From assembly GCF_014280175.1 (NCBI RefSeq), contig NZ_CP047931.1:2220001-2252000 (forward strand): a stretch of 32,000 nucleotides of DNA, in the 5' to 3' direction. This stretch comes from Synechococcus sp. A15-28. Its GTDB lineage: Bacteria; Cyanobacteriota; Cyanobacteriia; PCC-6307; Cyanobiaceae. Positions 11,954 to 32,000 of the stretch are shown piece after piece. A model generated the notes under the pieces. The model saw only the letters and a program-made list of their open reading frames with translations, was not told where the DNA came from and did no database searches. The stretch's first letter is position 1. Every line of letters begins with the position of its first letter. A program made the translations under genes and the position numbers.

Positions 11954-12048
11954 TCCTTCCTTCCGCAATCTCGAAAAACCCTACAAATGTCGGACGCGTG
12001 AATTCGCTCATAACAAGAACATAAATATCAGCTGAAGAACTACGTATC

Positions 12049-15000
12049 ATGACAGACCTCGACGGAAATGGCCTGGTAGATGGCTCTGAGTTGATCGCTT
12101 ATCAGCTTTTCGATGATGGCAACTCGATCACCATCACGAACAGGCGAGGTCGAACATTCTCGGACGCAACATCAAGATTCTGGAATGTCATTGCAGGCAC
12201 GCAAGTTGACGGCGGATTCCTCGTGCTGCGAGCCAGACAAACCCGCCGACGTGGATTGCGATATCAAACATGGACTACAGATGAAACAGGAACAATCAAT
12301 GGAAGATCGCGAGGCTGGCGTAGTGGTCAATCCATGGCCAACCAGGGGATCGAAAACATCTTCAATCTTGACCTCAACAATGATGGATGGATTGGAGATC
12401 AGCCACCGGAAGAATCAGGTCCAATCAACGATGGTGCAGCCACCTTCGCCATTGAGGGCACTCCACAACTGGGGCAGGTTCTCTCCATTTCCCTAACCAA
12501 CAGTGATCCTGATGGTGACGGCACTCCAACCGTTGCATGGCTTGCTTCCAATCCAGATGGAACCTGGTCTCAAGTCGGCTCCGATTCACAAATCACCATC
12601 TCCGCCGATCTTGAAGGTCGTCAACTCCTCGCCAACATTTCCTATATCGATGGTGATGGCTTCAGCGAGGACGTCTCAACCGAACCGGTCTTCGTTCCCA
12701 TCACAAACACGGATGATTACGGAACAACGCCCGAAAGCAGTGGCTTTCTTGCCATGGCAAGCCGTCTTGAAGGTGATCTCGAAGTTGCGGGAGACCTTGA
12801 CTGGTTCAAAGTCGAATTAGAGGCCGGCAGAAGTTATATTTTTGAGCAAATTGGGACAGGATTAGCGGACCCACTATTAACACTTAAAGACGAATTAGGA
12901 TCTATCCTCGCCAGCAATGACGATAGCGAAGGTGAATTAAATAGTCGAATAAACTTTGAAGCCGAAAGATCAGGATACTACTACCTCGAAGCTGGCTCAT
13001 ATCTCAATCAATTCACGGGCAAATATTTCATTGGCGCGTACGAAGATATAACGCAGCCTGAAGATCCCATTAACGACGGTGCAGCCACCTTCGCCATTGA
13101 CGGCACTCCACAACTGGGGCAGGTTCTCTCCATTTCCCTAACCAACAATGATCCTGATGGTGACGGCACTCCAACCGTTGCGTGGCTTGCTTCCAATCAA
13201 GATGGAACCTGGTCTCAAGTCGGCTCCGATTCAGAAATCACCATCTCCGCCGATCTTGAAGGTCGCCAACTCCTCGCCAACATTTCCTACATCGATGGTG
13301 ATGGCTTCAGCGAGGACGTCTCAACCGAACCGGTCCTCATCCCTGTCACTCCCGTCAACGATGGTGCAGCCACCTTCGCCATTGACGGCACTCCACAACT
13401 GGGGCAGGTTCTCTCCATTTCCTTAACCAACAATGATCCTGATGGTGACGGCACTCCAACCGTTGCGTGGCTTGCTTCCAATCAAGATGGAACCTGGTCT
13501 CAAGTCGGCTCCGATTCAGAAATCACCATCTCCGCCGATCTGGAAGGTCGCCAACTCCTCGCCAACATTTCCTACATCGATGGTGATGGCTTCAGCGAGG
13601 ACGTCTCAACTGAACCGGTCCTCATCCCTGTCACTTCCGTCAACGATGGTGCAGCCACCTTCGCTATTGAGGGCACTCCACAACTGGGGCAGGTTCTCTC
13701 CATTTCTCTAACCAACAGTGATCCTGATGGTGACGGCACTCCAACCGTTGCATGGCTTGCTTCCAATCCAGATGGAACCTGGTCTCAAGTCGGCTCCGAT
13801 TCAGAAATCACCATCTCCGCCGATCTGGAAGGTCGTCAACTCCTCGCCAACATTTCCTATATCGATGGTGATGGCTTCAGCGAGGACGTCTCAACCGAAC
13901 CGGTCCTCATCCCTGTCTCAAACTCTGACGATTACGGAGCAAGCCCCGAGAGCAGTGGATCTCTCGAGATTGGAAGCAGTCTTGAGGGTAATCTCGAATC
14001 CCTAGGAGATCTAGACTGGTTCAAAATTGAATTAGATGCTGACAAGTACTACAACTTTGAGTTGACTGGAACTACCCTTGCAGACTCATTCCTGGCCTTG
14101 AAAGAAGCCAATGGCAATGTCATCTCTAGCAATGACGACGGTGGAGAAGGATTCAGTAGCCGCATCATTTTTTCCCCTGAATCTTCAGGCACTTATTATC
14201 TTGAGGCAAGCGCATATAACAACGAGTATACCGGAACATATTTAATTACCGCCGACGAAGCAGATCCCTTGCCCCCTGGCTACAACCCTGAAGACGGGTT
14301 TGGCCATATTAACGCTAAAAGAAGCTTTGAAAAGTTACTTGGAATAACCCTCAATGATGCCGCAGACCTTGGTGGTGATTTATGGGGTCTCGACAATATC
14401 GGGGCACCAGAAGTTTGGACAGGCAGCAATAGCTTCTCGGGCGCAATCGGATCGGGAACAGTCATCGCCGTCATCGACACAGGTGTTGACCTAGATCACC
14501 CGGAATTCCAAAACAGAATTGCTCAAGGTTATGATTTTGTCGATTACGACAATATTGCCGACGATGGTGAAGGCCATGGCACGCATGTTGCCGGGACCAT
14601 CGCGGGCGCTGATGACGGTGAAGGAATCACCGGCGTCGCACCAGATGCATCAATCATGCCAATTCGAGTTCTCGACGATGAAGGCTATGGTTATACATCC
14701 GACATCATCGCTGGAGTCCGATGGGCAGCAGACAATGGTGCCGATGTCATCAATCTGTCGCTTGGAGGCGGAGGGTATAGCCAGGCTATGGCCGACGCAA
14801 TCGCCTACGCATCAGACCTTGGCTCGGTGATTGTCATGGCGGCTGGCAATAATGGCGGTGAATCTCCTATATACCCTGCAGCCCACGCAGAAACCCACGG
14901 CATCGCTGTTGGAGCCGTAAATCAAGAAAAGTCGTTTGCCGATTTCTCGAATCGAGCCGGATTTACGTTTCTTGATTATGTGACAGCCCCTGGAGTCAAT

Positions 15001-15516
15001 ATTTTCTCTTCGACACCCAACGGTAATTACGATTATTACAGTGGGACCTCCATGGCCAGCCCACACGTCGCCGGCATCGCAGCATTGCTGAAAAGCCATG
15101 ACAAAGCGCTAACACCGGAATCCATCGAAACTTTGATCACAAGCACCGCACACAACAACATTGATATCCAGCTCTCGGGCACTCAAACTGATGAGCTCAC
15201 AGGAGAACAATTTGATAAAATTATTACCTTAGAAACACTAGCCCAATTTGACGAAGATCAATTGCAAAGCCGGCTCATCGGAAGCTTGAGCGGAGATCTA
15301 AAGGCTAGAAAATCCGTCATCAGAGAACTTAAGGCTAATGAGAAAGAAGGCCTCATCATTGAAGACATTGATGTGATTAAATCGACTAATAAAAGTTTGA
15401 TCACTCTGGATCTGTCAGGATCAAATCCATCAGATCAATCAGATTTACTGGAGGACTTGCTCTCAGAAAAACAGTTCAACTATTTCGAAGTCGATACTCA
15501 AATGCAAATGATCTAG
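12049..15516 (+). CDS. Large multidomain S8 (subtilisin-family) serine peptidase, paralog A
   Basis: 1155 aa. Domain order: N-terminal module bracketed by DxDxNGxxD loops; a 95-aa repeat; a pre-peptidase C-terminal (PPC)-like module (DDYG...GDLDWFKVEL...NDD...YYLE); three more 95-aa repeats; a second PPC-like module; the S8 catalytic domain (VIDTGVD near 14470, GHGTHVAG near 14572, GTSMASPHVAG near 15043); and a ~140-aa C-terminal domain. An in-frame stop at 12022 excludes a longer N-terminus. No hydrophobic signal peptide is present. G+C is visibly lower than in the flanks. Confidence 0.9.
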   Translation: MTDLDGNGLVDGSELIAYQLFDDGNSITITNRRGRTFSDATSRFWNVIAGTQVDGGFLVLRARQTRRRGLRYQTWTTDETGTINGRSRGWRSGQSMANQGIENIFNLDLNNDGWIGDQPPEESGPINDGAATFAIEGTPQLGQVLSISLTNSDPDGDGTPTVAWLASNPDGTWSQVGSDSQITISADLEGRQLLANISYIDGDGFSEDVSTEPVFVPITNTDDYGTTPESSGFLAMASRLEGDLEVAGDLDWFKVELEAGRSYIFEQIGTGLADPLLTLKDELGSILASNDDSEGELNSRINFEAERSGYYYLEAGSYLNQFTGKYFIGAYEDITQPEDPINDGAATFAIDGTPQLGQVLSISLTNNDPDGDGTPTVAWLASNQDGTWSQVGSDSEITISADLEGRQLLANISYIDGDGFSEDVSTEPVLIPVTPVNDGAATFAIDGTPQLGQVLSISLTNNDPDGDGTPTVAWLASNQDGTWSQVGSDSEITISADLEGRQLLANISYIDGDGFSEDVSTEPVLIPVTSVNDGAATFAIEGTPQLGQVLSISLTNSDPDGDGTPTVAWLASNPDGTWSQVGSDSEITISADLEGRQLLANISYIDGDGFSEDVSTEPVLIPVSNSDDYGASPESSGSLEIGSSLEGNLESLGDLDWFKIELDADKYYNFELTGTTLADSFLALKEANGNVISSNDDGGEGFSSRIIFSPESSGTYYLEASAYNNEYTGTYLITADEADPLPPGYNPEDGFGHINAKRSFEKLLGITLNDAADLGGDLWGLDNIGAPEVWTGSNSFSGAIGSGTVIAVIDTGVDLDHPEFQNRIAQGYDFVDYDNIADDGEGHGTHVAGTIAGADDGEGITGVAPDASIMPIRVLDDEGYGYTSDIIAGVRWAADNGADVINLSLGGGGYSQAMADAIAYASDLGSVIVMAAGNNGGESPIYPAAHAETHGIAVGAVNQEKSFADFSNRAGFTFLDYVTAPGVNIFSSTPNGNYDYYSGTSMASPHVAGIAALLKSHDKALTPESIETLITSTAHNNIDIQLSGTQTDELTGEQFDKIITLETLAQFDEDQLQSRLIGSLSGDLKARKSVIRELKANEKEGLIIEDIDVIKSTNKSLITLDLSGSNPSDQSDLLEDLLSEKQFNYFEVDTQMQMI
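12421..12705 (+). repeat. 285-bp in-frame coding repeat, copy R1 (type a)
   Basis: Near-identical at DNA level to 13636-13920. Encodes INDGAATFAIEGTPQLGQVLSISLTNSDPDGDGTPTVAWLASNPDGTWSQVG... Confidence 0.9.
13066..13920 (+). repeat. Three contiguous 285-bp in-frame tandem repeats, R2 (b), R3 (b), R4 (a)
   Basis: Units start at 13066, 13351 and 13636, an exact 285-nt period. By manual comparison R2 and R3 differ at about 6 positions. Confidence 0.95.
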
Positions 15517-15579
15517 AGCTCTCCAATACATTCCGTTGCTCTGCTCGGTCAAGATTGACTCGTTGAAGTTGGAGTTCGT

Positions 15580-15686
15580 TGGGCCGGAGCATCGATTCAG
15601 ACCAGCAGCTGGCGGTGGAGCATGCCCGGCGCGCCACGCGCTGGCGGCTCAGCCTGCAGACCCACAAGTGGCTCGCAATTCGATGA
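15580..15686 (+). pseudogene. queE: Displaced/duplicated remnant of the queE 3' end
   Basis: Translates to ...SDQQLAVEHARRATRWRLSLQTHKWLAIR*, against the live queE C-terminus ...SDQGQQLAVEHAQRNPRWRLSLQTHKWIGVR*. An in-frame stop lies at 15564-15566 with no upstream queE body. It contains the right copy of the 35-nt repeat (15637-15671). Confidence 0.8.
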
Positions 15687-15843
15687 GTCGTTACAACACC
15701 AGAAACACTCACACGCAGCCAACTCTCAGGATCCTTTCAGGGACATTCATGAGAACAGCAACTTAAATCCGTTAGTATATTTAAAGGAAAAGCTTTGCGC
15801 ATCTCCTCTTTTAAAGGCTCAAATCACAACACCCGGTCGACCC

Positions 15844-18800
15844 ATGCCAAGCACAAGCAGCTCTGACAAGGTGCACGACCAAGTTAAAACAGCCACCAAA
15901 AGTGGCAAAAACGGCAATAAAAGCCTCGCAAAAAAAAATATTGCATTCAAAACAACTTATGACATCGATGACAACGGCCTAGTCGACGGCTCCGAAAAGC
16001 CTGGATACAAGCTCTATACCCCCGAAAGCGGGATTTTGATTACCGCCAAATCTGGAAAAACGTTTTCCGAGGCAACATCTGAAAAGTGGTCAGCTATTGC
16101 GGCAGCCCCAACAGAGAAGGGGTATCGAGTCTTAATTACAAACAACCAATCCAAGAAGGGAAAATACAAAATTTGGAAATTGAGCAGCAAGGGAATCGTC
16201 CGCTCAAAAGGTCGCTGGCTCCGGGAAAGAGCTCTTAGCTCAGAGGGCTATGAGGAAGTTTTTGGGATTGATTTTAATGGTGACGGCATGATCGAAGCCG
16301 ACACACTGATCGATGTTGGCGATGCAGATTTTTCCTTGACAGGAAATGCAACAGTTGGCAAGCGATTACGGGCTAAGCGTGCTGACGACGATCCAGATGG
16401 AAATGGAAGACCGCTCATAACCTGGCAGGCATTCTCAGGAGCAAGCATCTGGACAACAGCCGACACCGGCAAATCGATTCGTATCCCTGCAACGCTGGAG
16501 GGCGCTCAGGTCCGTGCCAGGGTTGAGTACAAAGATGGCGATGGGTTTCAAGAAACTGTCTTTACCCAGTCGCGCTCCATTCCCTACGTCGATAACGGCG
16601 ACGCTGCCTTCCTGATTCAAGGCACTCCAGCAGTCGGTCAAACCCTCTCCATCACGCAATCCGTCGCTGATCCCGATGGGGATGGGACACCCTCCTTCTC
16701 ATGGCTCCAATCCAGCGACGGCATCAACTGGTCTTTCCTGAGCTCCAACCCCACCTTCGATATTCCCGACAATCTGGAAGGGCAGACCATCACGGCAACC
16801 GTCCGATATACCGATAACCAGGGCTTTGAGGAATCAATCTCCACGAATGCTCTCACCATTCCCTACGTCGATAACGGTGACGCTGCCTTCCTGATTCAAG
16901 GCACTCCAGCAGTTGGTCAAACCCTCTCCATCACGCAATCCATCGCTGATCCCGATGGCAACGGTGCAGGCACATCCGCCATCTCATGGTTGCAATCCAG
17001 CGATAGCGTCAACTGGTCCGTCATCAGCACCGCACCCACATTCAACATCTCCAAAGACCTTGAGGGGAAGCGGATCAGAGCCATCGTCTCCTATTCCGAT
17101 GGTCAGGGATTCAGCGAATCGATCAACACCGATGACCTGACCATTCCATACGTCGACGACGGCGACGCCGACTTCCTCATCCAAGGCACCGCCGCAGTCA
17201 GCGAAATCATCTCCATCAGCCGCTCTGCAGACGATCCAGACGGCAATGGTGATGGTGCACTTGAGATCGCCTGGCAAGCCTCTCTGGATGGCACGAACTG
17301 GTGGGAAATCAGCACAGCCAGTGACCACCAGATTGGATCCAACCTTGCCGGCCATCAGCTGAATGCTGTTGTCCAATACACCGACAGCCAAGGCTTCAAA
17401 GAGACCATTACAACCGACAGTGTCTCTGTACCAGGCACTGCGGGATCCAACTCAGACGGCAAAGACGATTACGGCGGCAGCACGACCACCAATGGTCGCC
17501 TTACGATCCACAACAGCATTTCAGGCGAACTTGAATTAGCTGGAGATCACGACTGGTTCGCCATCAACCTCACAGCCGGTCGGCGTTATCAATTCGACCT
17601 GAATGGTGTCAGCCTCGAAGACCCGTTTCTCTACCTCCGCAGCAGCTCATCGTCATTAGTCGCTTACAACGACGATGAATCCTTGTTGAGCTTGGATTCC
17701 CAACTCAACTACACCGCAGAAAGCAGCGGCACGCACTACCTCGATGTGGGCGCCTACCAAGACGTTTATGCAGGGACCTACACACTCAGAGCATCCGAAC
17801 TCACCCCTCCGGACCCCGGGTTCAACAGCACCGATGGCTACGGCCATGTCAGTGCTCAACGCGCCTTCGAGCAATTGCTCAACATCTCTCTCGACCCTGT
17901 CGACGCCCTTGGCGGCAATCTCTGGGGAGTTGACAATGTCGATGCTCCCGAAGTGTGGAACGGGGGCAGCGGTTTTGCAGGCGCCACAGGAAGCGGAACC
18001 ACCATCGCGGTGATCGACACAGGGGTCGATCTGGATCACCCCGAATTTCTGGGTCGAATTGTCGCCGGCTACGACTTTGTTGATGATGACTCGATTGCGG
18101 ATGACGGCAATGGCCATGGCACCCATGTCGCTGGCACCATCGCCGGTGCCAACGACGGCACAGGCATCACCGGGGTCGCCTATGACGCCGCGATCATGCC
18201 CCTGCGTGTGCTGGGCAACGACGGTTACGGCTGGACCAGCGACATCATCTCTGCCGTGCGCTGGGCCGCCGACAACGGCGCCCATGTGATCAATCTTTCC
18301 CTCGGTGTTAGCGGTTACAGCCAAGCCATGGCCGATGCCATCAGCTATGCCTCCGGACGCGGCAGCGTTGTCGTGATGGCCGCCGGCAATTCCGGAGGCA
18401 TGGCACCCGAATACCCCGCGGCCCATGCGATTGATCACGGCATCGCCGTTGGTGCTGTGGACAGCAATCGTTCCTTCGCCGGGTTCTCCAACCGGGCCGG
18501 CTCCACGCAACTCGATTACGTGACAGCACCAGGAGTCAACATTTATTCGGCTGTGCCAGGAGGTGGTTACGACACTTTCAACGGCACGTCCATGGCGACA
18601 CCTTACGTCGCTGGTGTCGCCGGACTGCTCAAAAGTCATGACGGAAGTTTGTCCGCATCCGCCATCGAAGATCTGCTGACGGGCTCTGGCAGCAACAACA
18701 GCATCAGCGACAGCACCGCCTGGAACACCACTTCATCCATCCCATGGAGCACAAGGGATGTGATCACGATGCAAACGCTGGACAGCTTCAGCGACAAACA

Positions 18801-19068
18801 ACTCAGCGGCACCCTGATCGCCAGCGTTGACGGCAATGGTCGGGAACGACGCTCCACCCTCCGCGGCCTCAAGCAAGGCATTCGCTCCAACGACGCCTCC
18901 TACGACGGGCTGGAGGCGGTGAAAACGATTGAGGCCAGCCGCAACAGCTTTGCCGTGCTGGAGATCTCCAACGATCACGCCATCAATCAGAGAGCGCTAC
19001 TCACAGAGCTTCTGGGCAGCAACCAGTTCCATTACCTTGAAAAAGAGCAACAATTCTCGATCGTCTGA
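15844..19068 (+). CDS. Large multidomain S8 (subtilisin-family) serine peptidase, paralog B
   Basis: Same architecture as A but with one PPC-like module. Domain order: basic/Ser-rich N-terminus; DxDxNG-bracketed module; four ~93-95-aa repeats (16309-17433); PPC-like module (DDYGG...GDHDWFAINL); S8 domain (VIDTGVD near 18010, GHGTHVAG near 18112, GTSMATPYVAG near 18583); and a C-terminal domain. Start chosen at ATG 15844. The 15622 start would read through the queE remnant in the wrong frame. The 5' third is low-GC and the 3' part has host-like GC. Confidence 0.85.
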   Translation: MPSTSSSDKVHDQVKTATKSGKNGNKSLAKKNIAFKTTYDIDDNGLVDGSEKPGYKLYTPESGILITAKSGKTFSEATSEKWSAIAAAPTEKGYRVLITNNQSKKGKYKIWKLSSKGIVRSKGRWLRERALSSEGYEEVFGIDFNGDGMIEADTLIDVGDADFSLTGNATVGKRLRAKRADDDPDGNGRPLITWQAFSGASIWTTADTGKSIRIPATLEGAQVRARVEYKDGDGFQETVFTQSRSIPYVDNGDAAFLIQGTPAVGQTLSITQSVADPDGDGTPSFSWLQSSDGINWSFLSSNPTFDIPDNLEGQTITATVRYTDNQGFEESISTNALTIPYVDNGDAAFLIQGTPAVGQTLSITQSIADPDGNGAGTSAISWLQSSDSVNWSVISTAPTFNISKDLEGKRIRAIVSYSDGQGFSESINTDDLTIPYVDDGDADFLIQGTAAVSEIISISRSADDPDGNGDGALEIAWQASLDGTNWWEISTASDHQIGSNLAGHQLNAVVQYTDSQGFKETITTDSVSVPGTAGSNSDGKDDYGGSTTTNGRLTIHNSISGELELAGDHDWFAINLTAGRRYQFDLNGVSLEDPFLYLRSSSSSLVAYNDDESLLSLDSQLNYTAESSGTHYLDVGAYQDVYAGTYTLRASELTPPDPGFNSTDGYGHVSAQRAFEQLLNISLDPVDALGGNLWGVDNVDAPEVWNGGSGFAGATGSGTTIAVIDTGVDLDHPEFLGRIVAGYDFVDDDSIADDGNGHGTHVAGTIAGANDGTGITGVAYDAAIMPLRVLGNDGYGWTSDIISAVRWAADNGAHVINLSLGVSGYSQAMADAISYASGRGSVVVMAAGNSGGMAPEYPAAHAIDHGIAVGAVDSNRSFAGFSNRAGSTQLDYVTAPGVNIYSAVPGGGYDTFNGTSMATPYVAGVAGLLKSHDGSLSASAIEDLLTGSGSNNSISDSTAWNTTSSIPWSTRDVITMQTLDSFSDKQLSGTLIASVDGNGRERRSTLRGLKQGIRSNDASYDGLEAVKTIEASRNSFAVLEISNDHAINQRALLTELLGSNQFHYLEKEQQFSIV
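16309..17433 (+). repeat. Four diverged in-frame ~279-285-bp coding repeats in paralog B
   Basis: Units begin near 16309, 16588, 16867 and 17152. The first ~100 nt of units 2 and 3 are nearly identical (about 3 differences), and the remainder is diverged. Confidence 0.8.
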
Positions 19069-23552: not shown

Positions 23553-25294
23553 GCCTGAATCAGCCAATGCACGGCATAAGGTTCCAACTGAAGTTGAGAA
23601 GCGTGGGTCTCGGAGGATCCGCTCAGACAATCGGCCCAGGCGAGACCGGCGTGACCACCGAGACGCCCCAGGGCCAGGGTCAACCGCGAGGAGGTGACGT
23701 TGTGAACCGCCACCAGGGTCTGGCCGCCGCCACGGCGACGCAGCATCACCAGATCGGAGCGGCCAGCACTCAACACCTCCATGGCGGCATCGGGATGCAG
23801 GGCCGGCTGATCGCGGCGCACCCGCAGGGCATGACCCAGGGTCGTGGTCACGGCGGTGGCATCGCTGTCGGGATCCTGAAGTCGCCGCTCAACAGCCTCT
23901 GCCTTGAACTGCGGGCGGTTGAGATCCCTGCGCTGACCGGTGCGACGGAACGTGCCCAGGTCATTGGGCGTGGCCAACAGGGCCGGCAGATAAAAGGCCG
24001 GTACCCCGGGCAGCGCCAACACCAGCAGCTGAGTCATCAGGAAACGGGCCCGCTGCCAATGGGCCGGATCGATTCCGCCATCGGCCATTGCACTCCACCA
24101 ACTGATGTTGATCTCGTAGGGGGCCTCTTCACCGTTGGTGAGGCGGCGATGGCTGATCAGACCGCCCCGCTGCTCGCAGGCGATCAACAACTGCAGCCTC
24201 CGCTCATCCGACATCAACCCCTCCAGGGCCCGCAGACCCACACCGTCATGGCAAGCGGTGAAGTTGAACAGGCCTGTGGACTCCGGCAATGCCGGCCAAC
24301 GGTTGAGCCAGCCGTTCAACAGATCGGCACGCCCACTGATGGCCGCCTCCAGCAACAAAGGCGGCAACGGAAAGTTGTAAGCCAGGTGCGCCTCTCGGCC
24401 ACTGACCAGATAGGAAAGATTCTCCTCTTCCGGCACGTTGGTCTCCGTCACCACCACCCCGTCGCAACAGCTGCGTTCCATCAGCTGCCGCAGCACCTCA
24501 ACAATGCGATGGGCTTCAGGCAGGTGGATGCAGCCGGTCCCTGGCGTCTTCCAGATAAACCCCACCGCATCCAGACGGACCCAGCGGACCCCATGGCGGA
24601 GCATCCGGTCGAGCAGCCGTGTGAATCCCAGCAACACCTCCGGACTTCGCCAATCGACATCAACCTGGTCGGGCCCGAAGGTCGTCCATACCTGACGCGG
24701 ACCGTCCGATCCGCTCAGCTGGGTGAACAGGGAGGAGCTGCGCGGCCGCACCACCTGGTCCCAGCAAGGGTCGGGCGCGGCCTCCAGCACACAGGAGCGA
24801 CCCGGCTCCTCATCGCGCAGGAACTGCCTGACCCAGGGGTGGGCGGCGGAGATGTGATTCAGCACCAGATCCGCCATCAGACGACGCCCCTCAGCGAGGT
24901 CCGCCAGATCGTCCCAGTCACCGAAGCGCGGCTCGATCCGGTCGTGGCTGGCCACCGCAAAGCCGCCATCACTGGTGGAGGTCAGAAACGGCAGCACATG
25001 CACCACCTCAGCGAAGGGCCGCAGGCGGTTGTTGAGTAGCTGACGCAGGCTGCGCAACGCGGGCACCCCATGCTCCACCACCGTATCGGCATAGGTGATC
25101 AGCACCGCATCGGCGCCTGTCCAGAGATCCGTCGCAACGGGCGGGTCGTCGTTTGCTGACGCACCACGCAAAATCTGCAGCAATTGCGACGACAGCTGCT
25201 CGGAATCAGCGGAAGAATCCTCGAGGTAGAGGTTCTCCAGCAGGCCCTGCAGCGTTTCAGCGCTCAAGGTCTGCATATCGGCTCTCCTGAACAT
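23549..25294 (-). CDS. GH13_18 sucrose-phosphorylase-family protein (candidate glucosylglycerate phosphorylase)
   Basis: Sucrose-phosphorylase-like catalytic regions are present: VRLDAVGFIW, VVTETNVP, FTACHDGVGLR. 581 aa. Alternative start at ATG 25276. Confidence 0.8.
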   Translation of the reverse strand: MFRRADMQTLSAETLQGLLENLYLEDSSADSEQLSSQLLQILRGASANDDPPVATDLWTGADAVLITYADTVVEHGVPALRSLRQLLNNRLRPFAEVVHVLPFLTSTSDGGFAVASHDRIEPRFGDWDDLADLAEGRRLMADLVLNHISAAHPWVRQFLRDEEPGRSCVLEAAPDPCWDQVVRPRSSSLFTQLSGSDGPRQVWTTFGPDQVDVDWRSPEVLLGFTRLLDRMLRHGVRWVRLDAVGFIWKTPGTGCIHLPEAHRIVEVLRQLMERSCCDGVVVTETNVPEEENLSYLVSGREAHLAYNFPLPPLLLEAAISGRADLLNGWLNRWPALPESTGLFNFTACHDGVGLRALEGLMSDERRLQLLIACEQRGGLISHRRLTNGEEAPYEINISWWSAMADGGIDPAHWQRARFLMTQLLVLALPGVPAFYLPALLATPNDLGTFRRTGQRRDLNRPQFKAEAVERRLQDPDSDATAVTTTLGHALRVRRDQPALHPDAAMEVLSAGRSDLVMLRRRGGGQTLVAVHNVTSSRLTLALGRLGGHAGLAWADCLSGSSETHASQLQLEPYAVHWLIQA

Positions 25295-25345
25295 CGCTCA
25301 GGTATGGGTCATGACCTCATCAACTGTTGTCGCATTAAGCACCGG

Positions 25346-26623
25346 ATGGATTTTCAGCAGAGCCTGATCACCACGGTTCATGACTACAGCCTGGGCAACC
25401 TGGATGCTGTTGCCTTCAACCGCGAGCTGAGCCAGCGGCCGACGACGCTGTTGATCCCCTGTCTGATGGAGGAGTTCAGCCGTCCAGCACTGGCGCTGAT
25501 CCGCGACACTCTGTCGTCATTGAAAGGCCTCAATCGCCTCGTCATTGCTCTGGCCGCTGAAAGCGCGGAGGACGTAGCCCATGCCGAAGCCTTCTTCGCC
25601 GGCATGCCCTTTCCCGTTCAGGTGCACTGGACCAATGGCCCAGCCGTGAAGTACTTGCTTGAGTCCATGGGCGCCCTGGGACTCGAGGTCACCGGTCCCC
25701 CCGGCAAGGGCTGGGCGGTCTGGCAAGGGCTTGGGGTGGCCTGTCAGGACGCCGAAGTGGTGGGCCTGTTTGACGCCGACATCCGCACCTTCGGCTCGGC
25801 ATACCCGGAGCGGATGTTGCGTCCACTGCTGGATCGCTCCCACGGCATCGCCTACGTCAAGGCCTTCTACAGCCGGCTATCGCTGGAAACCCAGGCGCTG
25901 CAGGGTCGGGCCACCCGCCTGTTCGTCGGTCCTCTGCTGGTCAGCCTCGAACAGATCTTTGGCCCACTGCCGTACCTGCGCTATCTGCAGTCTTTTCGCT
26001 ACCCCTTGGCTGGTGAATTCGCCTTCACCACCGATCTGGCGATGAATCTGCGCATCCCCTCCGATTGGGGCCTGGAGATGGGGTTGCTCTCGGAGGTATT
26101 CCGTCATGTCGCCACCAGTCGCATTGCCCAGGTGGATCTGGGGCTGTTTGATCACAAGCACAAAGGACTCGGAAGCAAACCCAGTGAGGGGTTGCAACGC
26201 ATGGCCGGTGAAATCTTCGGAACCGTTTTGCGCAGCTTGATGGAGCACGAGGGCGCCGTGATCTCGATGGATCAGATTCCCACCCTTGAGGTGCTCTACC
26301 GACGCGTCGGTGAGGATCGGGTGCGCCAATTCGGCATTGATTCGGCGATCAACCGGCTCCCCTATAACCGCCATGGAGAAGAACTGGCTGTGCACAGTTT
26401 TGCTGAACTGCTGCGGCCAGGACTCTCCCGCCTAATGGAGTCTCCAGTTGCTCATCAGCTCCCCAGTTGGTCACGACTGAAAAGCTGCAATCCTTCGCTT
26501 CAAGGCGACCTAAGTGCAGCAGGTCAAATGGATCGCACTACATCTCGAACATTGCCCCAGTCTCAACCATTGCGTCGACCCAATCACAAACCCAGATCAT
26601 CAACATCTGAGCTTGTTGCCTGA
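25346..26623 (+). CDS. gpgS: Glucosyl-3-phosphoglycerate synthase (GT81)
   Basis: N-terminus MDFQQSLITTVHDY and DxD-type motif VVGLFDADIRTF. Divergent from the GH13-gpgP pair. Start at ATG 25346, because the 25184 start would overlap the GH13 gene. G+C falls in the last ~65 codons. Confidence 0.8.
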   Translation: MDFQQSLITTVHDYSLGNLDAVAFNRELSQRPTTLLIPCLMEEFSRPALALIRDTLSSLKGLNRLVIALAAESAEDVAHAEAFFAGMPFPVQVHWTNGPAVKYLLESMGALGLEVTGPPGKGWAVWQGLGVACQDAEVVGLFDADIRTFGSAYPERMLRPLLDRSHGIAYVKAFYSRLSLETQALQGRATRLFVGPLLVSLEQIFGPLPYLRYLQSFRYPLAGEFAFTTDLAMNLRIPSDWGLEMGLLSEVFRHVATSRIAQVDLGLFDHKHKGLGSKPSEGLQRMAGEIFGTVLRSLMEHEGAVISMDQIPTLEVLYRRVGEDRVRQFGIDSAINRLPYNRHGEELAVHSFAELLRPGLSRLMESPVAHQLPSWSRLKSCNPSLQGDLSAAGQMDRTTSRTLPQSQPLRRPNHKPRSSTSELVA

Positions 26624-26714
26624 ACGGACTTGAATAAAATGTAAACGAGTCAAATTGGCCCCAATCGTCAGATTGGAGCCAATTTCTATTCGTTTAGACA
26701 AATCCCAAGACGCA

Positions 26715-26894
26715 TCAAAGAGCCTGCTGCTGCCGCATTACCCATTGCGTCGCAGCGCGCTGGGATTGCCAGGCATGGAGAAGTTGCTTGGCAAGCGTCT
26801 GCAACTGCGCTGGGTCTGCAGTGGCTTCAATGGCACGGTTCATCCGCTCCACTTCAAAGCATTGCGTCGTGGACATTGCAATCGATTCCCGCAT
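26715..26894 (-). CDS. Candidate NblA-like small helical protein (59 aa)
   Basis: The sequence MRESIAMSTTQCFEVERMNRAIEATADPAQLQTLAKQLLHAWQSQRAATQWVMRQQQAL matches NblA proteins as I recall them in length and in the helix-loop-helix pattern (xxxEQxF...V/I......Q...L......R.AT.Q...). GGAG lies 6 nt upstream of ATG 26894. The overlapping plus-strand ORF looks non-coding. Confidence 0.4.
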   Translation of the reverse strand: MRESIAMSTTQCFEVERMNRAIEATADPAQLQTLAKQLLHAWQSQRAATQWVMRQQQAL

Positions 26895-26947
26895 CACTTA
26901 CTCCAATTGAAGACTTCACTATTTTCATGCCACCACGAAAAAGAATT

Positions 26948-26961
26948 GTTTCATTTGAAAC
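26948..26961 (-). promoter_or_regulatory. NtcA-like palindrome GTTTCA-TT-TGAAAC (fits GT-N10-AC)
   Basis: Perfect 6+2+6 palindrome. On the minus strand it sits 21 nt upstream of a -10-like GAAAAT (26926-26921), about 30 nt upstream of the NblA-like start codon. Confidence 0.3.
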
Positions 26962-27160
26962 GAAACATCCACACTGTGTGAACTTTCAGACTTATTGACT
27001 GATCAACCCACACTCCGCAACCAAAAAGAGCCGCGCCATCATCAAAAGGTCGCTAAAGCTACCAAACCAACTGCATCTGTATCACGGGGTCTAAACGAAA
27101 TCTGAAAGCATTTCCAATTCGTGCCCAATCCAACACTCCACTGGCGCAGAGTTCTGCAAA

Positions 27161-27433
27161 GTGGCATCATTCTGGGATTCTGACATGATTGAGTGCGTCT
27201 ACCGCAACGACACTGACCGAATGGTGATTGTTAAATGTGTCGGTGATGACCACTTTTACCGTGAAAAGGTTGTGCTTCCCACTGAGATGTTCTGGTTTGA
27301 AGCCCCTGAACAGGCGCGGCTTGAAATCTGGAAAATGTCGGTGAGCGGTCAGATGCTGCACGTACGCGCCGATGTGAGCGAGTACGCCATGAATCAAGAC
27401 GAGGCGGCCACCGAAACAGTCTGGGCCTGCTAA
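27161..27433 (+). CDS. DUF1830 domain protein (cyanobacteria-specific small protein)
   Basis: The pattern C.Y.N.T......V......FYREKVVLP....WFEAPEQARLEI matches my recollection of DUF1830 (C.Y.N.T...I.RI....W.FERVVFPG..LLFEAP.EA.LEI). Start is GTG 27161 or ATG 27185. Confidence 0.65.
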   Translation: MASFWDSDMIECVYRNDTDRMVIVKCVGDDHFYREKVVLPTEMFWFEAPEQARLEIWKMSVSGQMLHVRADVSEYAMNQDEAATETVWAC

Positions 27434-27463
27434 ATCGCTCCAGCCCCAGGACCTCAAGGAGGG

Positions 27464-27730
27464 CTAGCGGCCAATCAGATCGACTCCGAGCAGCTCAGCA
27501 GTCATCCTTGAGCGCAGAAAGCCCCCGGGACGGAGGGTCTTCGCCTTTGCCGCAGATGCTCCAGCCTCAAATGCATGCCGTTGATCATCTTGCACATCGT
27601 CGGAGAGGCTAAGAAGCTCAGCAGTTTTCTTGGAACGGATGATCTGGCAACTTGCCGTCTTCCGCCCGGAAGGCCGGTAGAGCAGTTGAGACGTTTGAAT
27701 AATCGAGCGTTGAGATTGAAGTTTGGACAT
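27464..27730 (-). CDS. Hypothetical small protein (88 aa) with internal TAELL repeat
   Basis: ATG 27730 is preceded by GGAGAGGACGA (SD-like). It carries two copies of (I/L)RS(K/R)xTAELL(S/G)(L/V). I recognise no family. Confidence 0.4.
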   Translation of the reverse strand: MSKLQSQRSIIQTSQLLYRPSGRKTASCQIIRSKKTAELLSLSDDVQDDQRHAFEAGASAAKAKTLRPGGFLRSRMTAELLGVDLIGR

Positions 27731-27958
27731 TCGTCCTCTCCGAGATGAACAGGTCCCCGTTCCTTGACCTGAGAACCACTGCGCCCTGAACCAGGGTGAA
27801 CGGCTGGTATTGGTTGATACAGATAAATCATGGCAAGCCAATGGATACAGACGTCGTTCGTGTCGAAACAAAATGGCAAACGGTTAATATTCTTCACAAA
27901 GGTCTGCCCCAGCAAAGTAGGAGGTGCCCATGTACGGCATGTCCCTGCCCGAAAGCAA

Positions 27959-28438
27959 TTGAAGAATCTCTTACCAATTGGAGCGATAGCCTGCCTACTC
28001 TCCGTGACAACGACAGCAATTCAAGGGTGCTACCGGCAAGCCAAGGAAACTCCCAGTCATGAAGCTCAACCCGGCGACACGCTTGTGGTGAAGGGAGGTG
28101 CAGAGATACGCCTGACCCACACCTTCAAACCAGGAGAACCCAATGGACTCTTCGATGGAGGAATCAGGGTCACAACGGATCAATCCGTGACGAGCACTGC
28201 AGAGGTGAATGCGGTCTGCAGCATGCCTGATCTGCCGAACTGGCCTCAGTACGACAACATTTATGGACGTTGGTTAACGGACGGCGAAACGCCTGGTGTC
28301 GAGGGGGGAAAAACGGACTGGCAACTGTTGCTCTATTTCAATGGCCAGACCGAGGAGAAGGGCCGCGAACCAGCTCCTGCATGGGCCCAACGCCTCGCGC
28401 AAAACCTTTGTCGAAAAGGAGATTTCCTAGACGACTGA
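27959..28438 (+). CDS. Putative lipoprotein, unknown function
   Basis: From TTG 27959 the product begins MKNLLPIGAIACLLSVTTTAIQG|C, a classical n-h-lipobox-like signal with Cys at residue 24. The longer ATG 27830 start would add 43 non-signal residues. Confidence 0.5.
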   Translation: MKNLLPIGAIACLLSVTTTAIQGCYRQAKETPSHEAQPGDTLVVKGGAEIRLTHTFKPGEPNGLFDGGIRVTTDQSVTSTAEVNAVCSMPDLPNWPQYDNIYGRWLTDGETPGVEGGKTDWQLLLYFNGQTEEKGREPAPAWAQRLAQNLCRKGDFLDD

Positions 28439-28566
28439 GCTACCTAGGGAGGCCAAGCATCTCCGTAATGGCCAACGGTCGCCCAACAAAATGACACAAC
28501 AGTGGCAATTGATACGGCCAGGCTCTCCTCGAGACCTGACTATGGGAATGGTTCTCGTTCTCGCCA

Positions 28567-28869
28567 ATGGCTAGTACCGGCAGTGTCAGTTCCTGGGACG
28601 AGTCTGTGCTCGTCGCAATGATTCAATATCCCGTGCCTGTGATCACAGGTCCAGCCGATATCCAGACACAAGTCGACCAGATTTGCAAAGCCGTAGCGTC
28701 AACAAAAGCTGGATATCCGGAAGCAGACATAATTGTGATGCCTGAGTACTCAACTCAAGGTTTAAACACAGCCATTTGGACCTATGCCACAGAACGGAGT
28801 GACAAATTCGATCCCAGCAACAGCAACAGCCTGACAAAGTTTGCTGCCGCAAGTTTGCTCTCTGTATGA
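28567..28869 (+). pseudogene. amiF: 5' fragment of an AmiF-type formamidase / aliphatic amidase (nitrilase superfamily)
   Basis: The first ~72 codons (MASTGSVSSWDESVLVAMIQYPVPVI...[25 protein letters not shown]) align from the start codon with the Helicobacter AmiF N-terminus as I recall it (MGSIGSMGKPIEGFLVAAIQFPVPIV...[25 protein letters not shown]). Similarity is lost near 28785 and the frame stops at 28869. The Lys and Cys of the catalytic triad would be missing. Confidence 0.75.
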
Positions 28870-28884
28870 GAGCAAACTTGCGGC
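28846..28884. repeat. Perfect 17-bp inverted repeat (hairpin, 5-nt loop) at the end of the amidase fragment
   Basis: gccgcaagtttgctctc (28846-28862) / tgtat / gagagcaaacttgcggc (28868-28884). The stop codon of the truncated ORF lies in the loop/right arm. A partial direct copy (caaagtttgctgc) precedes it. Confidence 0.9.
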
Positions 28885-29043
28885 GAATTAAAGGTTTTAT
28901 TATCATATTGTAGAATTAAAAAAAGTATCACATAAAACAAAGTTTTAGTATCAAAACAGTGCAATTTTTAATTGCGTATAAAGGGCCACATCTTGGCCCC
29001 TTCATTGTGTCTTTAATAAAAGAGTGTTAGCTTCTTGCTATCA

Positions 29044-30249
29044 ATGCCCGAAACGCTTTTCAAAGTTGATCTCACCAAGTCGATGGATCAGCAGGATATG
29101 CCTGGACATAACCGTTGGCATCCAGATATTCCTGCAGTCGCATCAGTTAATCCAGGCGATGTCTTTCGAATTGAGTGCAAAGACTGGACAGATGGACAGA
29201 TTAAAGACAACGACAATCCCCAAGATATTGCTGATGTGAATCTCGAGGTTGTTCACGTTCTAAGTGGTCCAATTTGGGTCAATGGAGCTCAGCCAGGAGA
29301 TATTTTGGTTGTTGATATCCTCGAGGTAGGAGCACTTCAAGGTGATGAGTGGGGTTTTACTGGAATCTTTGCCAAAGAAAACGGTGGAGGATTTCTGACC
29401 GATCATTTTCCAAAAGCAGCAAAAGCAATCTGGGATTTGGAAGGAGTTTTTACGTCCTCTCGCCACATTCCCGGAGTTCGTTTCGCTGGCATCACCCATC
29501 CAGGCCTGATCGGTTGCGCTCCCTCCATGGATCTGCTCCAGGAATGGAACCGTCGAGAAACAGAGTTGGTTCAGACTGCACCAGACCGCAGAACCTATGG
29601 CGCAGGACTTTCTGGAACGGAACCGGTTCTGGCAGCTTTGCCGAACCCAAACAGCGCCATTCTTGGGAACGTCGCTGCTGGAGATTTTGAGAGAATTGCT
29701 AACGAAGCAGCTCGGACTGTTCCTCCACGGGAACATGGAGGAAACTGCGACATTAAAAATCTCACAAAAGGAACACGGATCTATTTCCCTGTGTACGTAG
29801 AGGGTGCAAAGCTCTCCATGGGTGACATTCACTTTTCTCAGGGTGATGGGGAAATTTCATTCTGTGGTGCTATCGAGATGTCTGGATATCTCGATCTTCA
29901 TGTTGAGCTGATCAAAGGAGGGATGGCTAAATATGGCATGGTCAATCCAATGTTCAAGACCAGTCCTGTTGAGCCTCATTACTCTGATTATCTAGTCTTT
30001 GAGGGCATCTCTGTCGATGAATTTGAAGGGAAACAATATTATATGGATGTGCATATTGCTTATCGCAGAGCCTGCCTAAATGCAATTGAATACTTGAAAA
30101 AATTTGGTTATACAGGAGAACAGGCCTATCTCTTGCTGAGCTGCGCTCCGGTTGAAGGCAGGATCAGTGGAATTGTCGACATTCCAAATGCGTGCTGCAC
30201 CCTTGCCATACCAACTTCCATATTTGACAAAGATATTCTCCCCTGCTAA
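29044..30249 (+). CDS. fmdA: Formamidase, FmdA/AmdA (acetamidase/formamidase) family
   Basis: Extensive similarity along the whole length to Methylophilus FmdA as I recall it: NRWHPD, WGF.G.FAKENGGGFLTDHFP, HPGLIGC, TVPPREHGGNCDIKNLTKG, HFSQGDGEI.FCGAIEM, HIAYR.ACLNAIEYLKKFGY.GEQA. Confidence 0.92.
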   Translation: MPETLFKVDLTKSMDQQDMPGHNRWHPDIPAVASVNPGDVFRIECKDWTDGQIKDNDNPQDIADVNLEVVHVLSGPIWVNGAQPGDILVVDILEVGALQGDEWGFTGIFAKENGGGFLTDHFPKAAKAIWDLEGVFTSSRHIPGVRFAGITHPGLIGCAPSMDLLQEWNRRETELVQTAPDRRTYGAGLSGTEPVLAALPNPNSAILGNVAAGDFERIANEAARTVPPREHGGNCDIKNLTKGTRIYFPVYVEGAKLSMGDIHFSQGDGEISFCGAIEMSGYLDLHVELIKGGMAKYGMVNPMFKTSPVEPHYSDYLVFEGISVDEFEGKQYYMDVHIAYRRACLNAIEYLKKFGYTGEQAYLLLSCAPVEGRISGIVDIPNACCTLAIPTSIFDKDILPC

Positions 30250-30283
30250 GCACTTACTTCTACCATTATTTATCGATTTTCAC

Positions 30284-30568
30284 ATGCCAGTCTACGAATA
30301 TTCCTGCCAATCTAGTGAATGCCTCACCTATGAAGTATGGCGATCAATTGATCAACGTTCTGTTCAAACAGAATGCCCTACTTGTGGAAGAGAAGGCAAG
30401 AGGATTTTCAATCCACCCATGGTGTTATCCTCATCTATTCGCTCGAAAATCGAAGTTAAGGAACCAAAACTTGTGAGCAAAAAAAATTCAATATATGCGA
30501 CTGAGCCTTCAAAGCCTCGATTACGCACAAACGATTCACGTCCTTGGATGTTGAATCGAGGTTGCTAA
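30284..30568 (+). CDS. fmdB: FmdB-family zinc-ribbon putative regulatory protein
   Basis: MPVYEY.C......YEVW........CP.CG pattern of the FmdB/CxxC_CxxC_SSSS family, located directly downstream of fmdA. The first Cys pair is spaced C-x4-C rather than CxxC. Confidence 0.75.
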   Translation: MPVYEYSCQSSECLTYEVWRSIDQRSVQTECPTCGREGKRIFNPPMVLSSSIRSKIEVKEPKLVSKKNSIYATEPSKPRLRTNDSRPWMLNRGC

Positions 30569-30590
30569 GAAAAGACTATCAAAATTAAAA

Positions 30591-30624
30591 AAATGGGGTG
30601 TGATTAAAAAATCACACCCCATTT
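30591..30624. terminator. Bidirectional rho-independent terminator between convergent fmdB and urtE
   Basis: 15-bp perfect stem aaatggggtgtgatt / aatcacaccccattt with a 4-nt loop, flanked by an A-tract upstream and a T-tract downstream. Confidence 0.75.
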
Positions 30625-30633
30625 TTATTCTGA

Positions 30634-31380
30634 TTAAACTGTCAGGAATTCTTCAATCACATGATCTGATAATTGTGAGGTTGGACCACTCGATACAATA
30701 CCACCTCGTTGCATCGCATAATAGAAATTAGACTGCTTCACAAAATGAAGGTGTTGCTCAACCAGAAGAACACTAATGCCTGTTTCTTTAATGATCCGTT
30801 TGACAGCACGTTCAATGTCGAGAATAATCGACGGCTGGATCCCTTCGGTTGGCTCATCTAACAAAAGAAGCTTGGGCTTGCCAAGAAGTGCACGTGCAAT
30901 CGCAAGTTGTTGCTGCTGACCTCCACTGAGGTCACCTCCACGTCGATTCAGAAACTGTTCAAGAATAGGAAACAATTCAAAAACAATGGGATCAATATGA
31001 CGATTTCGCCCCATCCCCCCAGACAATGATTCCATTCCGATCAAAAGATTCTCTCGAACTGTAATTCGAGGAATAATATCTCGGCCTTGGGAAACATAAC
31101 CAATTCCTCCCCTTGCTCGTTTATAAGGAGGCTGGTTAGTTAACATTTTTCCGTCATATTCAATCGAACCAGATCGTTGCTCGAGAAGACCAATGATCGT
31201 CTTTAGAAAGGTTGTCTTTCCCACTCCATTACGACCGATCAAACAAATCATTTCCCCCTCAGGGATATGCAGGTCAACATTTCTGAGAATGTGACTCTCG
31301 CCATAATAGACATTCAAGCCATTTGCTCGAAGAACTGTTTTTGCTGAGGTTGGATGTGTGGTGGTTGTCGTTTGTACCAT
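30634..31380 (-). CDS. urtE: Urea/short-chain-amide ABC transporter ATP-binding protein UrtE-like
   Basis: Walker A GRNGVGKTT, signature LSGGQQQQLAIARAL, Walker B LLLLDEP, and a branched-chain/urea-type ATPase layout. The downstream position in the D-E pair is typical of urtABCDE / fmdDEF-type systems. Confidence 0.8.
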   Translation of the reverse strand: MVQTTTTTHPTSAKTVLRANGLNVYYGESHILRNVDLHIPEGEMICLIGRNGVGKTTFLKTIIGLLEQRSGSIEYDGKMLTNQPPYKRARGGIGYVSQGRDIIPRITVRENLLIGMESLSGGMGRNRHIDPIVFELFPILEQFLNRRGGDLSGGQQQQLAIARALLGKPKLLLLDEPTEGIQPSIILDIERAVKRIIKETGISVLLVEQHLHFVKQSNFYYAMQRGGIVSSGPTSQLSDHVIEEFLTV

Positions 31381-31412
31381 GATCTTTAAAGGGATTAGTG
31401 AATAAAAAGATA

Positions 31413-32000
31413 CTATTCAGATTGACCGAGATAAACCTCAATCACTTTTGGATCAGACTTTACCTCATCAAGTGAACCTTCCGTCAACAACTGCCCTTGA
31501 TGCAACACAGTGACTGGTGCGGCAAGATCACGAATAAACTCCATATCATGCTCAATTACCACCACGGTATGTTCACCTGCAAGGGATTTAATCAGTTCAG
31601 CTGTTTTGTTCGTCTCGTCATCGGTCAAGCCTGCCACTGGCTCGTCCAGAAGAATGATATCTGGAGATTGAGCAACAAGCATTGAAATCGCAAGCCATTG
31701 TTTTTGGCCGTGAGACAAAGAACCGGCCAAGACCTTTGCATAAGGAGCAAGGCCCACATAATCCATCAAGCGATAGACCTCATCTTTAGCCGTGTTATTG
31801 AGTTTTTCAAACATAAGACTGAATGGCATCTTGCTCGGTGAAGCAGCCAACTCAAGATTTCTAGAGACCGAAAGATTTTCAAACACGCGAGGTGTCTGAA
31901 ACTTACGACCAACACCTAGTCTTGAAATCTTCTGTTCCGAAAAACCAATAATGCTGGAACCTCGCAGGGAGACTGAGCCTTTGGTTGGCTTAACCTTTCC
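31413..32000 (-). CDS. urtD: Urea/short-chain-amide ABC transporter ATP-binding protein UrtD-like (5' end beyond window)
   Basis: The frame is open to base 32000 (GKVKPTKGSVSLRG...GRKFQTPRVFENLSV). Signature LSHGQKQWLAISML, Walker B IILLDEP, and the C-terminal KVIEVYLG are present. Confidence 0.8.
   Translation of the reverse strand, partial: GKVKPTKGSVSLRGSSIIGFSEQKISRLGVGRKFQTPRVFENLSVSRNLELAASPSKMPFSLMFEKLNNTAKDEVYRLMDYVGLAPYAKVLAGSLSHGQKQWLAISMLVAQSPDIILLDEPVAGLTDDETNKTAELIKSLAGEHTVVVIEHDMEFIRDLAAPVTVLHQGQLLTEGSLDEVKSDPKVIEVYLGQSE

Follow-up and report, generated by a model that had tools for sequence, protein, structure and literature searches.

Can a propeptide-like domain serve a subtilase from behind its catalytic domain? 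Two adjacent genes of Synechococcus sp. A15-28 raise this question. They lie in a 32,000-nucleotide stretch of contig NZ_CP047931.1 (assembly GCF_014280175.1, positions 2,220,001 to 2,252,000), hereafter the window, and encode two S8 family peptidases, paralogs A and B. Subtilisin propeptides are textbook intramolecular chaperones that also inhibit their own enzyme, and all those known to us are N-terminal or free-standing. The initial annotation of the window noticed an I9-like pattern at the opposite end of both paralogs. The C-termini that it quoted (A, ...RLIGSLSGDLKARKSVIRELKANEKEGLIIEDIDVIKSTNKSLITLDLSGSNPSDQSDLLEDLLSEKQFNYFEVDTQMQMI; B, ...TLIASVDGNGRERRSTLRGLKQGIRSNDASYDGLEAVKTIEASRNSFAVLEISNDHAINQRALLTELLGSNQFHYLEKEQQFSIV) are exact, and both chains stop there. 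We slightly favour the reading that the last ~100 residues are a family-specific α/β, propeptide-like module, fused C-terminal to the S8 domain and working in an I9-like manner, probably as a putative autoinhibitor and/or folding chaperone of the propeptide kind. The observation is confirmed and its interpretation as I9 partly supported; the case consists of coherent I9-specific details, not of a significant database match. Coordinates are collected in Table 1.

Both paralogs carry an intact S8 catalytic domain. In A, the catalytic residues are Asp810, His843 and Ser1001, with Asn934 at the oxyanion hole; the D-T-G, H-G-T-H and G-T-S-M-A motifs that, together with the oxyanion Asn, define S8 peptidases are all present. 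In a structural model of A these four residues map onto D32, H64, S221 and N155 of subtilisin BPN', and among 103 homologs D60, H93 and S251 (model numbering) are invariant and N184 nearly so. A Foldseek search with the model of the S8 domain plus tail returned thermitase and subtilisins as best matches (~40% identity, E about 1e-25), with 7y6m also among the S8 structural matches. This search is dominated by S8, and its sequential alignment is blind to a permuted prodomain. A and B are 49% identical across 830 aa; identity is 73% between the S8 cores and only ~30% between the tails, yet the tails align end to end. Pfam assigns no domain to the last ~118 residues, after S8, in either protein. 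The C-terminal domain had been placed at 15100-15516, a range that contains the tail of A (15217-15513). However, as the Pfam S8 match extends to aa 1037, the range also takes in the end of S8 (to about 15159) and the linker.

The tail is predicted to adopt a ferredoxin-like β-α-β-β-α-β fold, the fold class of I9. This comes from an AlphaFold2 model of aa 751-1155 of A, built with the 103 aligned homologs, which has a mean predicted local distance difference test score (pLDDT) of 87.6 and a predicted template modelling score (pTM) of 0.85, the tail blocks scoring about 78-88. Within the tail, DSSP assigns strands at model residues 325-330, 356-359, 367-371, 393-398 and 401-404, and helices at 334-349 and 377-389. 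The tail modelled alone gives the same core (pLDDT 86), and both predictions show the open α+β sandwich topology of I9. The E-x-D pair stands at the end of the last core strand, and six residues then lead to the chain end. At the other side of the catalytic domain, a conserved ~25-residue segment ('DG[FY]G.V.A..AFE.LL') directly precedes S8 across the family; it is predicted to be helical (pLDDT about 90) and is not an I9 propeptide.

The likeness to I9 propeptides extends to details of the chain end. In an alignment of 41 tails, only L86 in helix 2 and E95, the Glu of Y-F-E-x-D, are invariant, and the position two residues after this Glu is occupied by D, E or N. The invariant columns of an I9 alignment are only V12, in strand 1, and E69. 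Glu69 and Asp71 of the BPN' prosegment serve as caps for two helices on the surface of the catalytic domain; Glu209 and Asp211 are their equivalents in PfSUB1 Prodp9, whose C-terminal Asp217 falls at 211+6, and SUB1-ProM, an inhibitor undetectable by sequence, has Glu146 and Asn148 as caps and ends at +5 (PMC6993865). The tails carry the E-x-D pair at the same place, and by analogy with that work it may have a helix-cap role. Among PDB chains, those of BPN' (1spb_P), the PCSK9 prodomains and POIA1 stop at E-x-D+6, and that of Tk-subtilisin does so to within one residue.

Seventy-three of 131 tails end at +6 and six at +5. The 48 distinct +6 tails have F, M, V or W at +3, S, T or R at +4, I, M or A at +5 and I or V at +6. 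Hydrophobic residues at +3, +5 and +6 with a polar residue at +4 would fit positions P4, P2, P1 and P3 of the subtilisin subsites, where S4 and S1 are large hydrophobic pockets and P3 faces the solvent. The I9-like end pattern recurs across the family and is more than chance. That the domain ends exactly at the C-terminus, as initially stated, applies to both window proteins and to the 73 tails at +6, but not to the 44 that end at +10 or to the eight that end later. The +10 subgroup, typified by the ortholog in Synechococcus sp. UW69 (P0057), ends in E-x-D-Q-x-[IV]-Q-L-D-[VA]-[FV]-x-[AT]. Two of the eight later-ending tails continue for 12 residues and six for 47-123, most with F, M, L or A at +6; the long-extension homologs include P0031, P0033, P0037, P0149 and P0159. 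Such extensions could represent a C-terminal autoprocessing site or a secretion motif.

The position of the last residues relative to the active-site cleft was read from the secondary-structure and confidence strings of the model. The pTM of 0.85 indicates a confidently predicted two-domain arrangement. Residues 401-404 form a strand when the tail is modelled with S8 (pLDDT of the last five-residue block 74), whereas in the tail alone they are non-strand with pLDDT <50; the model thus appears to order them through contact with the catalytic domain. In addition, model residues 130-132 and 155-156, assigned as strand or bridge, map to BPN' 101-103 and 126-127, the walls that sandwich the substrate strand. 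A terminal strand between the cleft walls would be compatible with these strings, which are suggestive only. A group-wise comparison of cleft residues with tail type was confounded by phylogeny and was not used.

If the tail works as an I9 propeptide does, its sheet would pack against a pair of helices on the catalytic domain's surface (BPN' 104-116 and 133-144), and Glu1147 and Asp1149 would cap both helices in the manner of Glu69 and Asp71 of the BPN' prosegment. Subsites S6-S1 would be threaded by residues 1150-1155, of which the last four to six would form a strand in S4-S1, and the natural C-terminal carboxylate would stand where cleavage otherwise leaves the P1 carboxylate. Such an arrangement would imitate the product complex, a state for which classical prosubtilisins must first cleave themselves; here no scissile bond would be needed to keep the enzyme inactive in cis. 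The tail might serve as a folding template as well. The enzyme would become active once the tail was displaced or degraded, for which cleavage within the probably disordered linker (aa 1036-1056), where we infer a candidate site for proteolytic release, would be the simplest route. In the +10 and long-extension subgroups, the bond past the P1-equivalent would be a substrate-like site for trimming the extension if the model holds; if it fails, these variants argue that a free P1 carboxylate is inessential.

Several results weigh against an I9 identity of the tail. The Pfam Inhibitor_I9 model (PF05922) matched neither A nor B, nor their last 150 aa, at E<=1, and not one of the 41 family tails gave a match at E<=10. 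Little weight attaches to this negative, since genuine I9 proteins also fall below the Pfam cut-off (the Tk-subtilisin propeptide scores 14.8 bits and PBI2 has no match). A tail profile run against PDB sequences retrieved no I9 chain, its one chance match being a pilin (E=0.19). For profile-profile comparison, an I9 profile was made from eight validated sequences; six of the eight pass the Pfam I9 cut-off, and the profile matches the corresponding PDB propeptide chains at E of about 1e-29 to 1e-17. A deeper profile of 46 sequences added propeptide-like sequences of the N-terminal 'VEYAEP[DN]' type, which, with six further residues, occur in many S8 proteins of other phyla that are the nearest relatives lacking the tail. 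In hhalign, the tail profile reached a probability of 1.4% (P=0.037) against the eight sequences and 1.1% (P=0.05) against the 46, neither being significant; overall the values were 1.1-1.5% and P 0.03-0.05, and runs in local, low-mact and global modes all lacked significance. The best alignment in each run had the expected register and was co-terminal, pairing 'SLITLDLS...DLLEDLLSEKQFNYFEVDTQMQMI' over β3-α2-β4 with '...LQEKFKAYSSDPMVEYAEPDFTVRAL', at the same lack of significance. With no significant profile match, homology of the tail to I9 is not demonstrated. An I9 hidden Markov model (HMM) scored the real tails only about 1.4 bits above reversed or shuffled controls; as the tails are mutually related and the difference is so small, this comparison was rejected as evidence.

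Structure comparison was no more specific. Foldseek with the isolated tail against the PDB gave nothing at E<=1e-3. RRM, de novo ferredoxin, HMA and ACT/RAM domains headed the list, and the PfSUB1 prodomain 4lvn_P stood at rank 30, with TM-scores (0.48 query, 0.58 target) on a par with those of the best matches. Because these other folds score like 4lvn_P, the fold evidence is not specific to I9; the result does not point to I9 in particular, nor does it place the tail in some other fold. In a review of type I secretion and efflux systems, the Tk-subtilisin propeptide is itself grouped with RRM, acylphosphatase and carboxypeptidase activation domains (PMC8277102). The significant I9 match that profile and structure searches might have supplied for the initial annotation did not appear.

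The proposed placement of the chain end meets objections of its own. AlphaFold may recall prosubtilisin complexes from its training data, and the substrate cleft shows no excess of A-B differences (11/36 versus 70/255 overall). Ile or Val at P1 is unusual in subtilisin substrates. Since 44 of the 131 tails run four residues past +6 and eight run 12-123 past it, a free carboxylate at P1 is not universal. An I9 propeptide is also N-terminal and autocleaved at P1-P1', while the tail is C-terminal and its chain stops at the P1-equivalent. With both sequence and position or autoprocessing failing, the tail is not filed as I9; what stands of that identification is the predicted fold, the E-x-D pair and the +6 register, and what does not is any significant match in Pfam, PDB sequences or hhalign.

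How far the module extends beyond the window depended on the query. Word-indexed homolog searches with the tail only returned just seven close relatives for A and one for B; one homolog is 68% identical to the B tail. The query of S8 plus tail made the family visible, with >100 homologs covering the tail and >130 sequences overall, among them 'S8 family peptidase' proteins of Synechococcus sp. UW69 and a protein of a Prochlorococcus metagenome-assembled genome. Database names are just 'S8 family peptidase' or 'subtilisin-like', and the members checked are S8 peptidases of marine Synechococcus or Prochlorococcus. According to the tail HMM, the domain lies at or <=7 residues from the C-terminus in nearly all homologs, three of which have about 106 extra residues. 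A HMMER search with the tail profile found 40 matches at E<=1e-3 among 1.84 billion cluster representatives, almost all at or near the C-terminus. All ten long matches that were scanned have the tail directly after S8, most with PPC and/or W_rich_C before S8. None of these ten contains Inhibitor_I9, and the profile search yielded no N-terminal I9 and so no bridge to I9; N-terminal I9 was likewise absent from the family members examined, whereas the N-terminal propeptide-like motif with the same spacing is carried by many tail-less S8 relatives outside the family, a complementary distribution that favours the I9-like reading. In species-representative genomes, a scan with the tail alignment gave no confirmed match. 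The scan with S8 plus tail retrieved mostly generic S8 genes, with close relatives only at picocyanobacterial loci; only the Synechococcus locus reached the tail, the Prochlorococcus locus matching query residues 1-281 only.

Two other sets of proteins were also inspected. P0160, a distant relative from a metagenome (972 aa), has RTX repeats flanking S8 and, inside the chain, a weak tail-like region at aa 699-793; further RTX repeats come after this region, and the protein ends in ...DVTLV. This layout suggests that a tail-like module may also occur in a likely type I-secreted protease. S8 homologs of high-light Prochlorococcus (P0108, P0119, P0121, P0123 and P0173; e.g. MIT 9312 ABB50244.1) extend ~200 residues past the catalytic Ser, contain internal 'AGTDGFYENQSKN' repeats and end in ...FQNYLENQNNNYSV, with Y-x-E eight residues from the end. 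The HLII C-termini 'FQNYLENQNNNYSV' look like tails by eye and are not significant against the tail HMM; they were not accepted as tails.

Alternatively, the tail may be a generic ferredoxin-like accessory domain unrelated to I9, acting in export or localisation, whether as a secretion signal of type I-like character, as an anchor at the surface or in oligomerisation, its resemblance to I9 being a coincidence within a very common fold. We consider this rather unlikely, although the generic Foldseek matches and the lack of a significant I9 profile match both speak for it. So do the N-termini: in A, B and the UW69 ortholog alike, the first 120 residues contain no Sec-type hydrophobic stretch (maximum Kyte-Doolittle 12-mer <=1.0, versus 2.8 for the BPN' signal peptide), yet the PPC, W_rich_C and Ca-loop-like repeats are typical of exported proteins. 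RTX repeats in some relatives (P0113, P0116 and P0160) and the +10 ends, in which Asp is followed by four mostly hydrophobic or small residues (e.g. DAVLA, DVFNA), are in line with such a role, as Asp plus hydrophobic ends recall the termini of type I-secreted proteases. However, the signals of type I secretion tend to lack structure and to be little conserved, unlike this conserved tail with its confidently predicted fold, and a secretion signal leaves the invariant Glu, the E-x-D+6 stop and the P4/P2/P1 pattern unexplained. In P0160, moreover, the tail-like region is internal and the RTX repeats and likely signal come after it. Neither in the window nor in UW69 does the locus have neighbouring genes for an ABC exporter, membrane fusion protein or outer membrane protein, and A and B lack the HemolysinCabind match of a type I substrate. 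Export and an I9-like role are not mutually exclusive and can coexist.

The ACT and RAM matches of the isolated tail point to another option, a ligand-binding regulatory or substrate-recognition domain that tunes the activity or specificity of the protease allosterically and does not occupy the active site. The matches include a phenylalanine hydroxylase ACT domain (5jk6_B, query TM-score 0.49), AsnC/Lrp, aspartate kinase and IlvN, and the faster evolution of the tail than of the catalytic core (about 30% versus 73% identity between the paralogs) is consistent with this. All of them, however, have E>0.1 and reflect a common ferredoxin-like topology, no ACT or RAM Pfam match was found in the 41 tails, and conservation lies at the C-terminal strand and chain end instead of a loop-type ligand site; this option seems improbable. 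We give equally little credence to a removable C-terminal pro-sequence that assists translocation or solubility and is then discarded with no contact to the active site, like that of aqualysin I or a classical PPC. The probably disordered 21-residue linker between S8 and tail would suit it, and secreted subtilases often have C-terminal extensions that are cleaved off, as do AprV2, AprV5 and BprV (PMC3480457). Such a pro-sequence leaves the I9-type motif and register unexplained, and PPC, the usual removable C-terminal module, is here N-terminal to S8.

The reading of the tail as an I9-like module working in cis can be taken further, to the domain-permuted subtilases that the initial annotation proposed. 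An I9-type prodomain, homologous or convergent, would have moved to the C-terminal side, giving a zymogen 'born' product-inhibited that needs no autoprocessing. We regard this as possible and hold it only tentatively. The classical order is I9-S8-PPC, and the window proteins have the reverse, PPC-S8-tail. This mirrored layout may have arisen through C-terminus-first export of these signal-peptide-less proteins, as is reported for type I secretion of the HlyA kind, because a folding template would then have to emerge first. The origin would be either descent from I9 by permutation or convergence on the same solution. The initial annotation knew of no description of this arrangement, and literature searches found I9 modules only in N-terminal or free-standing form and no account of a C-terminal I9-like domain. 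A 2008 survey noted for Synechococcus only the combination of W_rich_C with S8 (PMC2605481).

The genes occupy a conserved place in the genome. In the window and in UW69, the neighbours are housekeeping genes (pyrG, queE, an NAD-binding dehydrogenase, queC and pabB). In UW69 (locus L001), a single 540-aa ortholog with the order PPC-S8-tail lies between queE and the NAD-binding dehydrogenase/queC/pabB. The shared slot suggests that the gene belongs to a conserved locus and has undergone duplication and expansion in the window genome; the slot, pyrG-queE-[S8]-NAD-binding dehydrogenase-queC-pabB, seems to be conserved while its content varies. The stretch with A and B (12000-18000) is island-like in look, with a G+C content of 0.48-0.54, compared with 0.62-0.67 on either side. 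Another region of low G+C (0.43-0.53) is found at 25184-32000.

Upstream of S8, the paralogs have further features. A has two PPC stretches, and W_rich_C and PPC, nominally 'C-terminal' domains, are both N-terminal to the catalytic domain. The N-termini of A and B bear DxDxNGxxDxxE loops of Ca-binding appearance; A, B and the UW69 ortholog have domains of extracellular look despite N-termini lacking a signal peptide. Tandem 285-bp repeats encode a ~95-aa module (INDGAATFAIxGTPQLGQ...DPDGDG...W...LEG...Y.DG.GF.E) with no Pfam match, of which about four to five copies per protein can be counted by eye. The near-identity of the repeats in A suggests recent expansion or gene conversion. The true start of B is possibly downstream of the first ATG at 15622.

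Table 1. Features of the two S8 peptidase genes and of the second low-G+C region, in window coordinates
Feature	Position	Strand	Residues	Basis and remarks
Paralog A	12049..15516	+	1155 aa	Open reading frame list, Pfam, tandem repeats; order: weak W_rich_C, 4 x ~95-aa repeats interleaved with 2 PPC domains, S8, linker, tail
W_rich_C region of A	12049-12400			
Tandem 285-bp repeats of A	13065-13917			3.0 copies, 97% identity
PPC domain of A	14011..14211	+	aa 655-721	Pfam PF04151; N-terminal to S8
Segment preceding S8 in A	14299-14385		aa 751-779	'DG[FY]G.V.A..AFE.LL'
S8 domain of A	14449..15159	+	aa 801-1037	Pfam PF00082, E=4e-60
Linker of A	15154..15216	+	aa 1036-1056, 21 residues	Low-confidence, probably disordered; model residues 286-306, pLDDT <50
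Tail domain of A	15217..15513	+	aa 1057-1155	Core about 15271-15513, after conserved 'ITLETL' lead-in
Chain end of A	15487..15513	+		E-V-D-T-Q-M-Q-M-I-COOH; E-x-D + six residues (putative P6-P1)
Paralog B	15622..19068	+	1148 aa from first ATG	Architecture as in A
W_rich_C region of B	15622-16300			
Tandem 285-bp repeats of B	16577-17218			2.3 copies, 77% identity
PPC region of B	17548-17748			
S8 domain of B	17989..18687	+	aa 790-1022	Pfam PF00082, E=3e-50
Tail domain of B	18745..19065	+	aa 1042-1148	Alignments
Chain end of B	19039..19065	+		E-K-E-Q-Q-F-S-I-V-COOH; E-x-E + six residues
Open reading frame	25184-26623			No Pfam match
Open reading frame	27830-28438			No Pfam match
Formamidase/acetamidase gene	29035-30249			
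ABC ATPase gene	30634-31380	-		

Were the I9-like reading of the tail true, the interface between prodomain and protease would be reachable from either chain end, a zymogen could form without an autocleavage step, and domain order might follow the direction of export. It would also give a regulatory logic to an uncharacterised protease family at a conserved marine Synechococcus locus, with relatives in Prochlorococcus, and it suggests how subtilases could be engineered to be inhibited in cis until their linker is cut.

Among known systems, the nearest comparison is with the I9 propeptides themselves (PF05922; 1SPB_P, Tk-subtilisin, PCSK9, PfSUB1 Prodp9). Like them, the tail is attached to an S8 domain, has a predicted β-α-β-β-α-β core of about 75-85 residues, ends its last strand in [YF]-x-E-x-D with six residues to the putative P1 and hydrophobic P4, P2 and P1, and evolves faster than the catalytic domain. 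Unlike them, it follows the catalytic domain, its chain ends at 'P1' with no scissile bond or autoprocessing, it has an extra conserved 'ITLxTL...QL' lead-in of about 18 residues, and it shows no significant sequence or profile similarity. A second comparison is with C-terminal extensions of subtilases such as PPC, the aqualysin I pro-sequence, the Tk-SP β-jelly roll and the kexin P-domain, which share its position and are often tied to secretion, stability or maturation. These are β-sandwich, jelly-roll or unstructured and have no E-x-D+6 end. In intracellular subtilisin proteases, a short N-terminal peptide blocks the active site and is later cleaved; the proposed cis-autoinhibition in a subtilase lacking a classical I9 or signal peptide is similar, with a folded C-terminal domain in place of the short peptide. 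Finally, POIA1 (Pleurotus), PBI2 (yeast), SPI-1 (Arabidopsis) and SUB1-ProM (Plasmodium) are propeptide-like folds uncleaved from a protease, which place their own free C-terminus in or near the non-prime subsites. They are separate proteins acting in trans, whereas the tail is tethered in cis to the C-terminus of the enzyme by a linker of roughly 20-40 residues. By analogy, the tail would work most like an I9 propeptide, and especially like these free-standing I9-like inhibitors.

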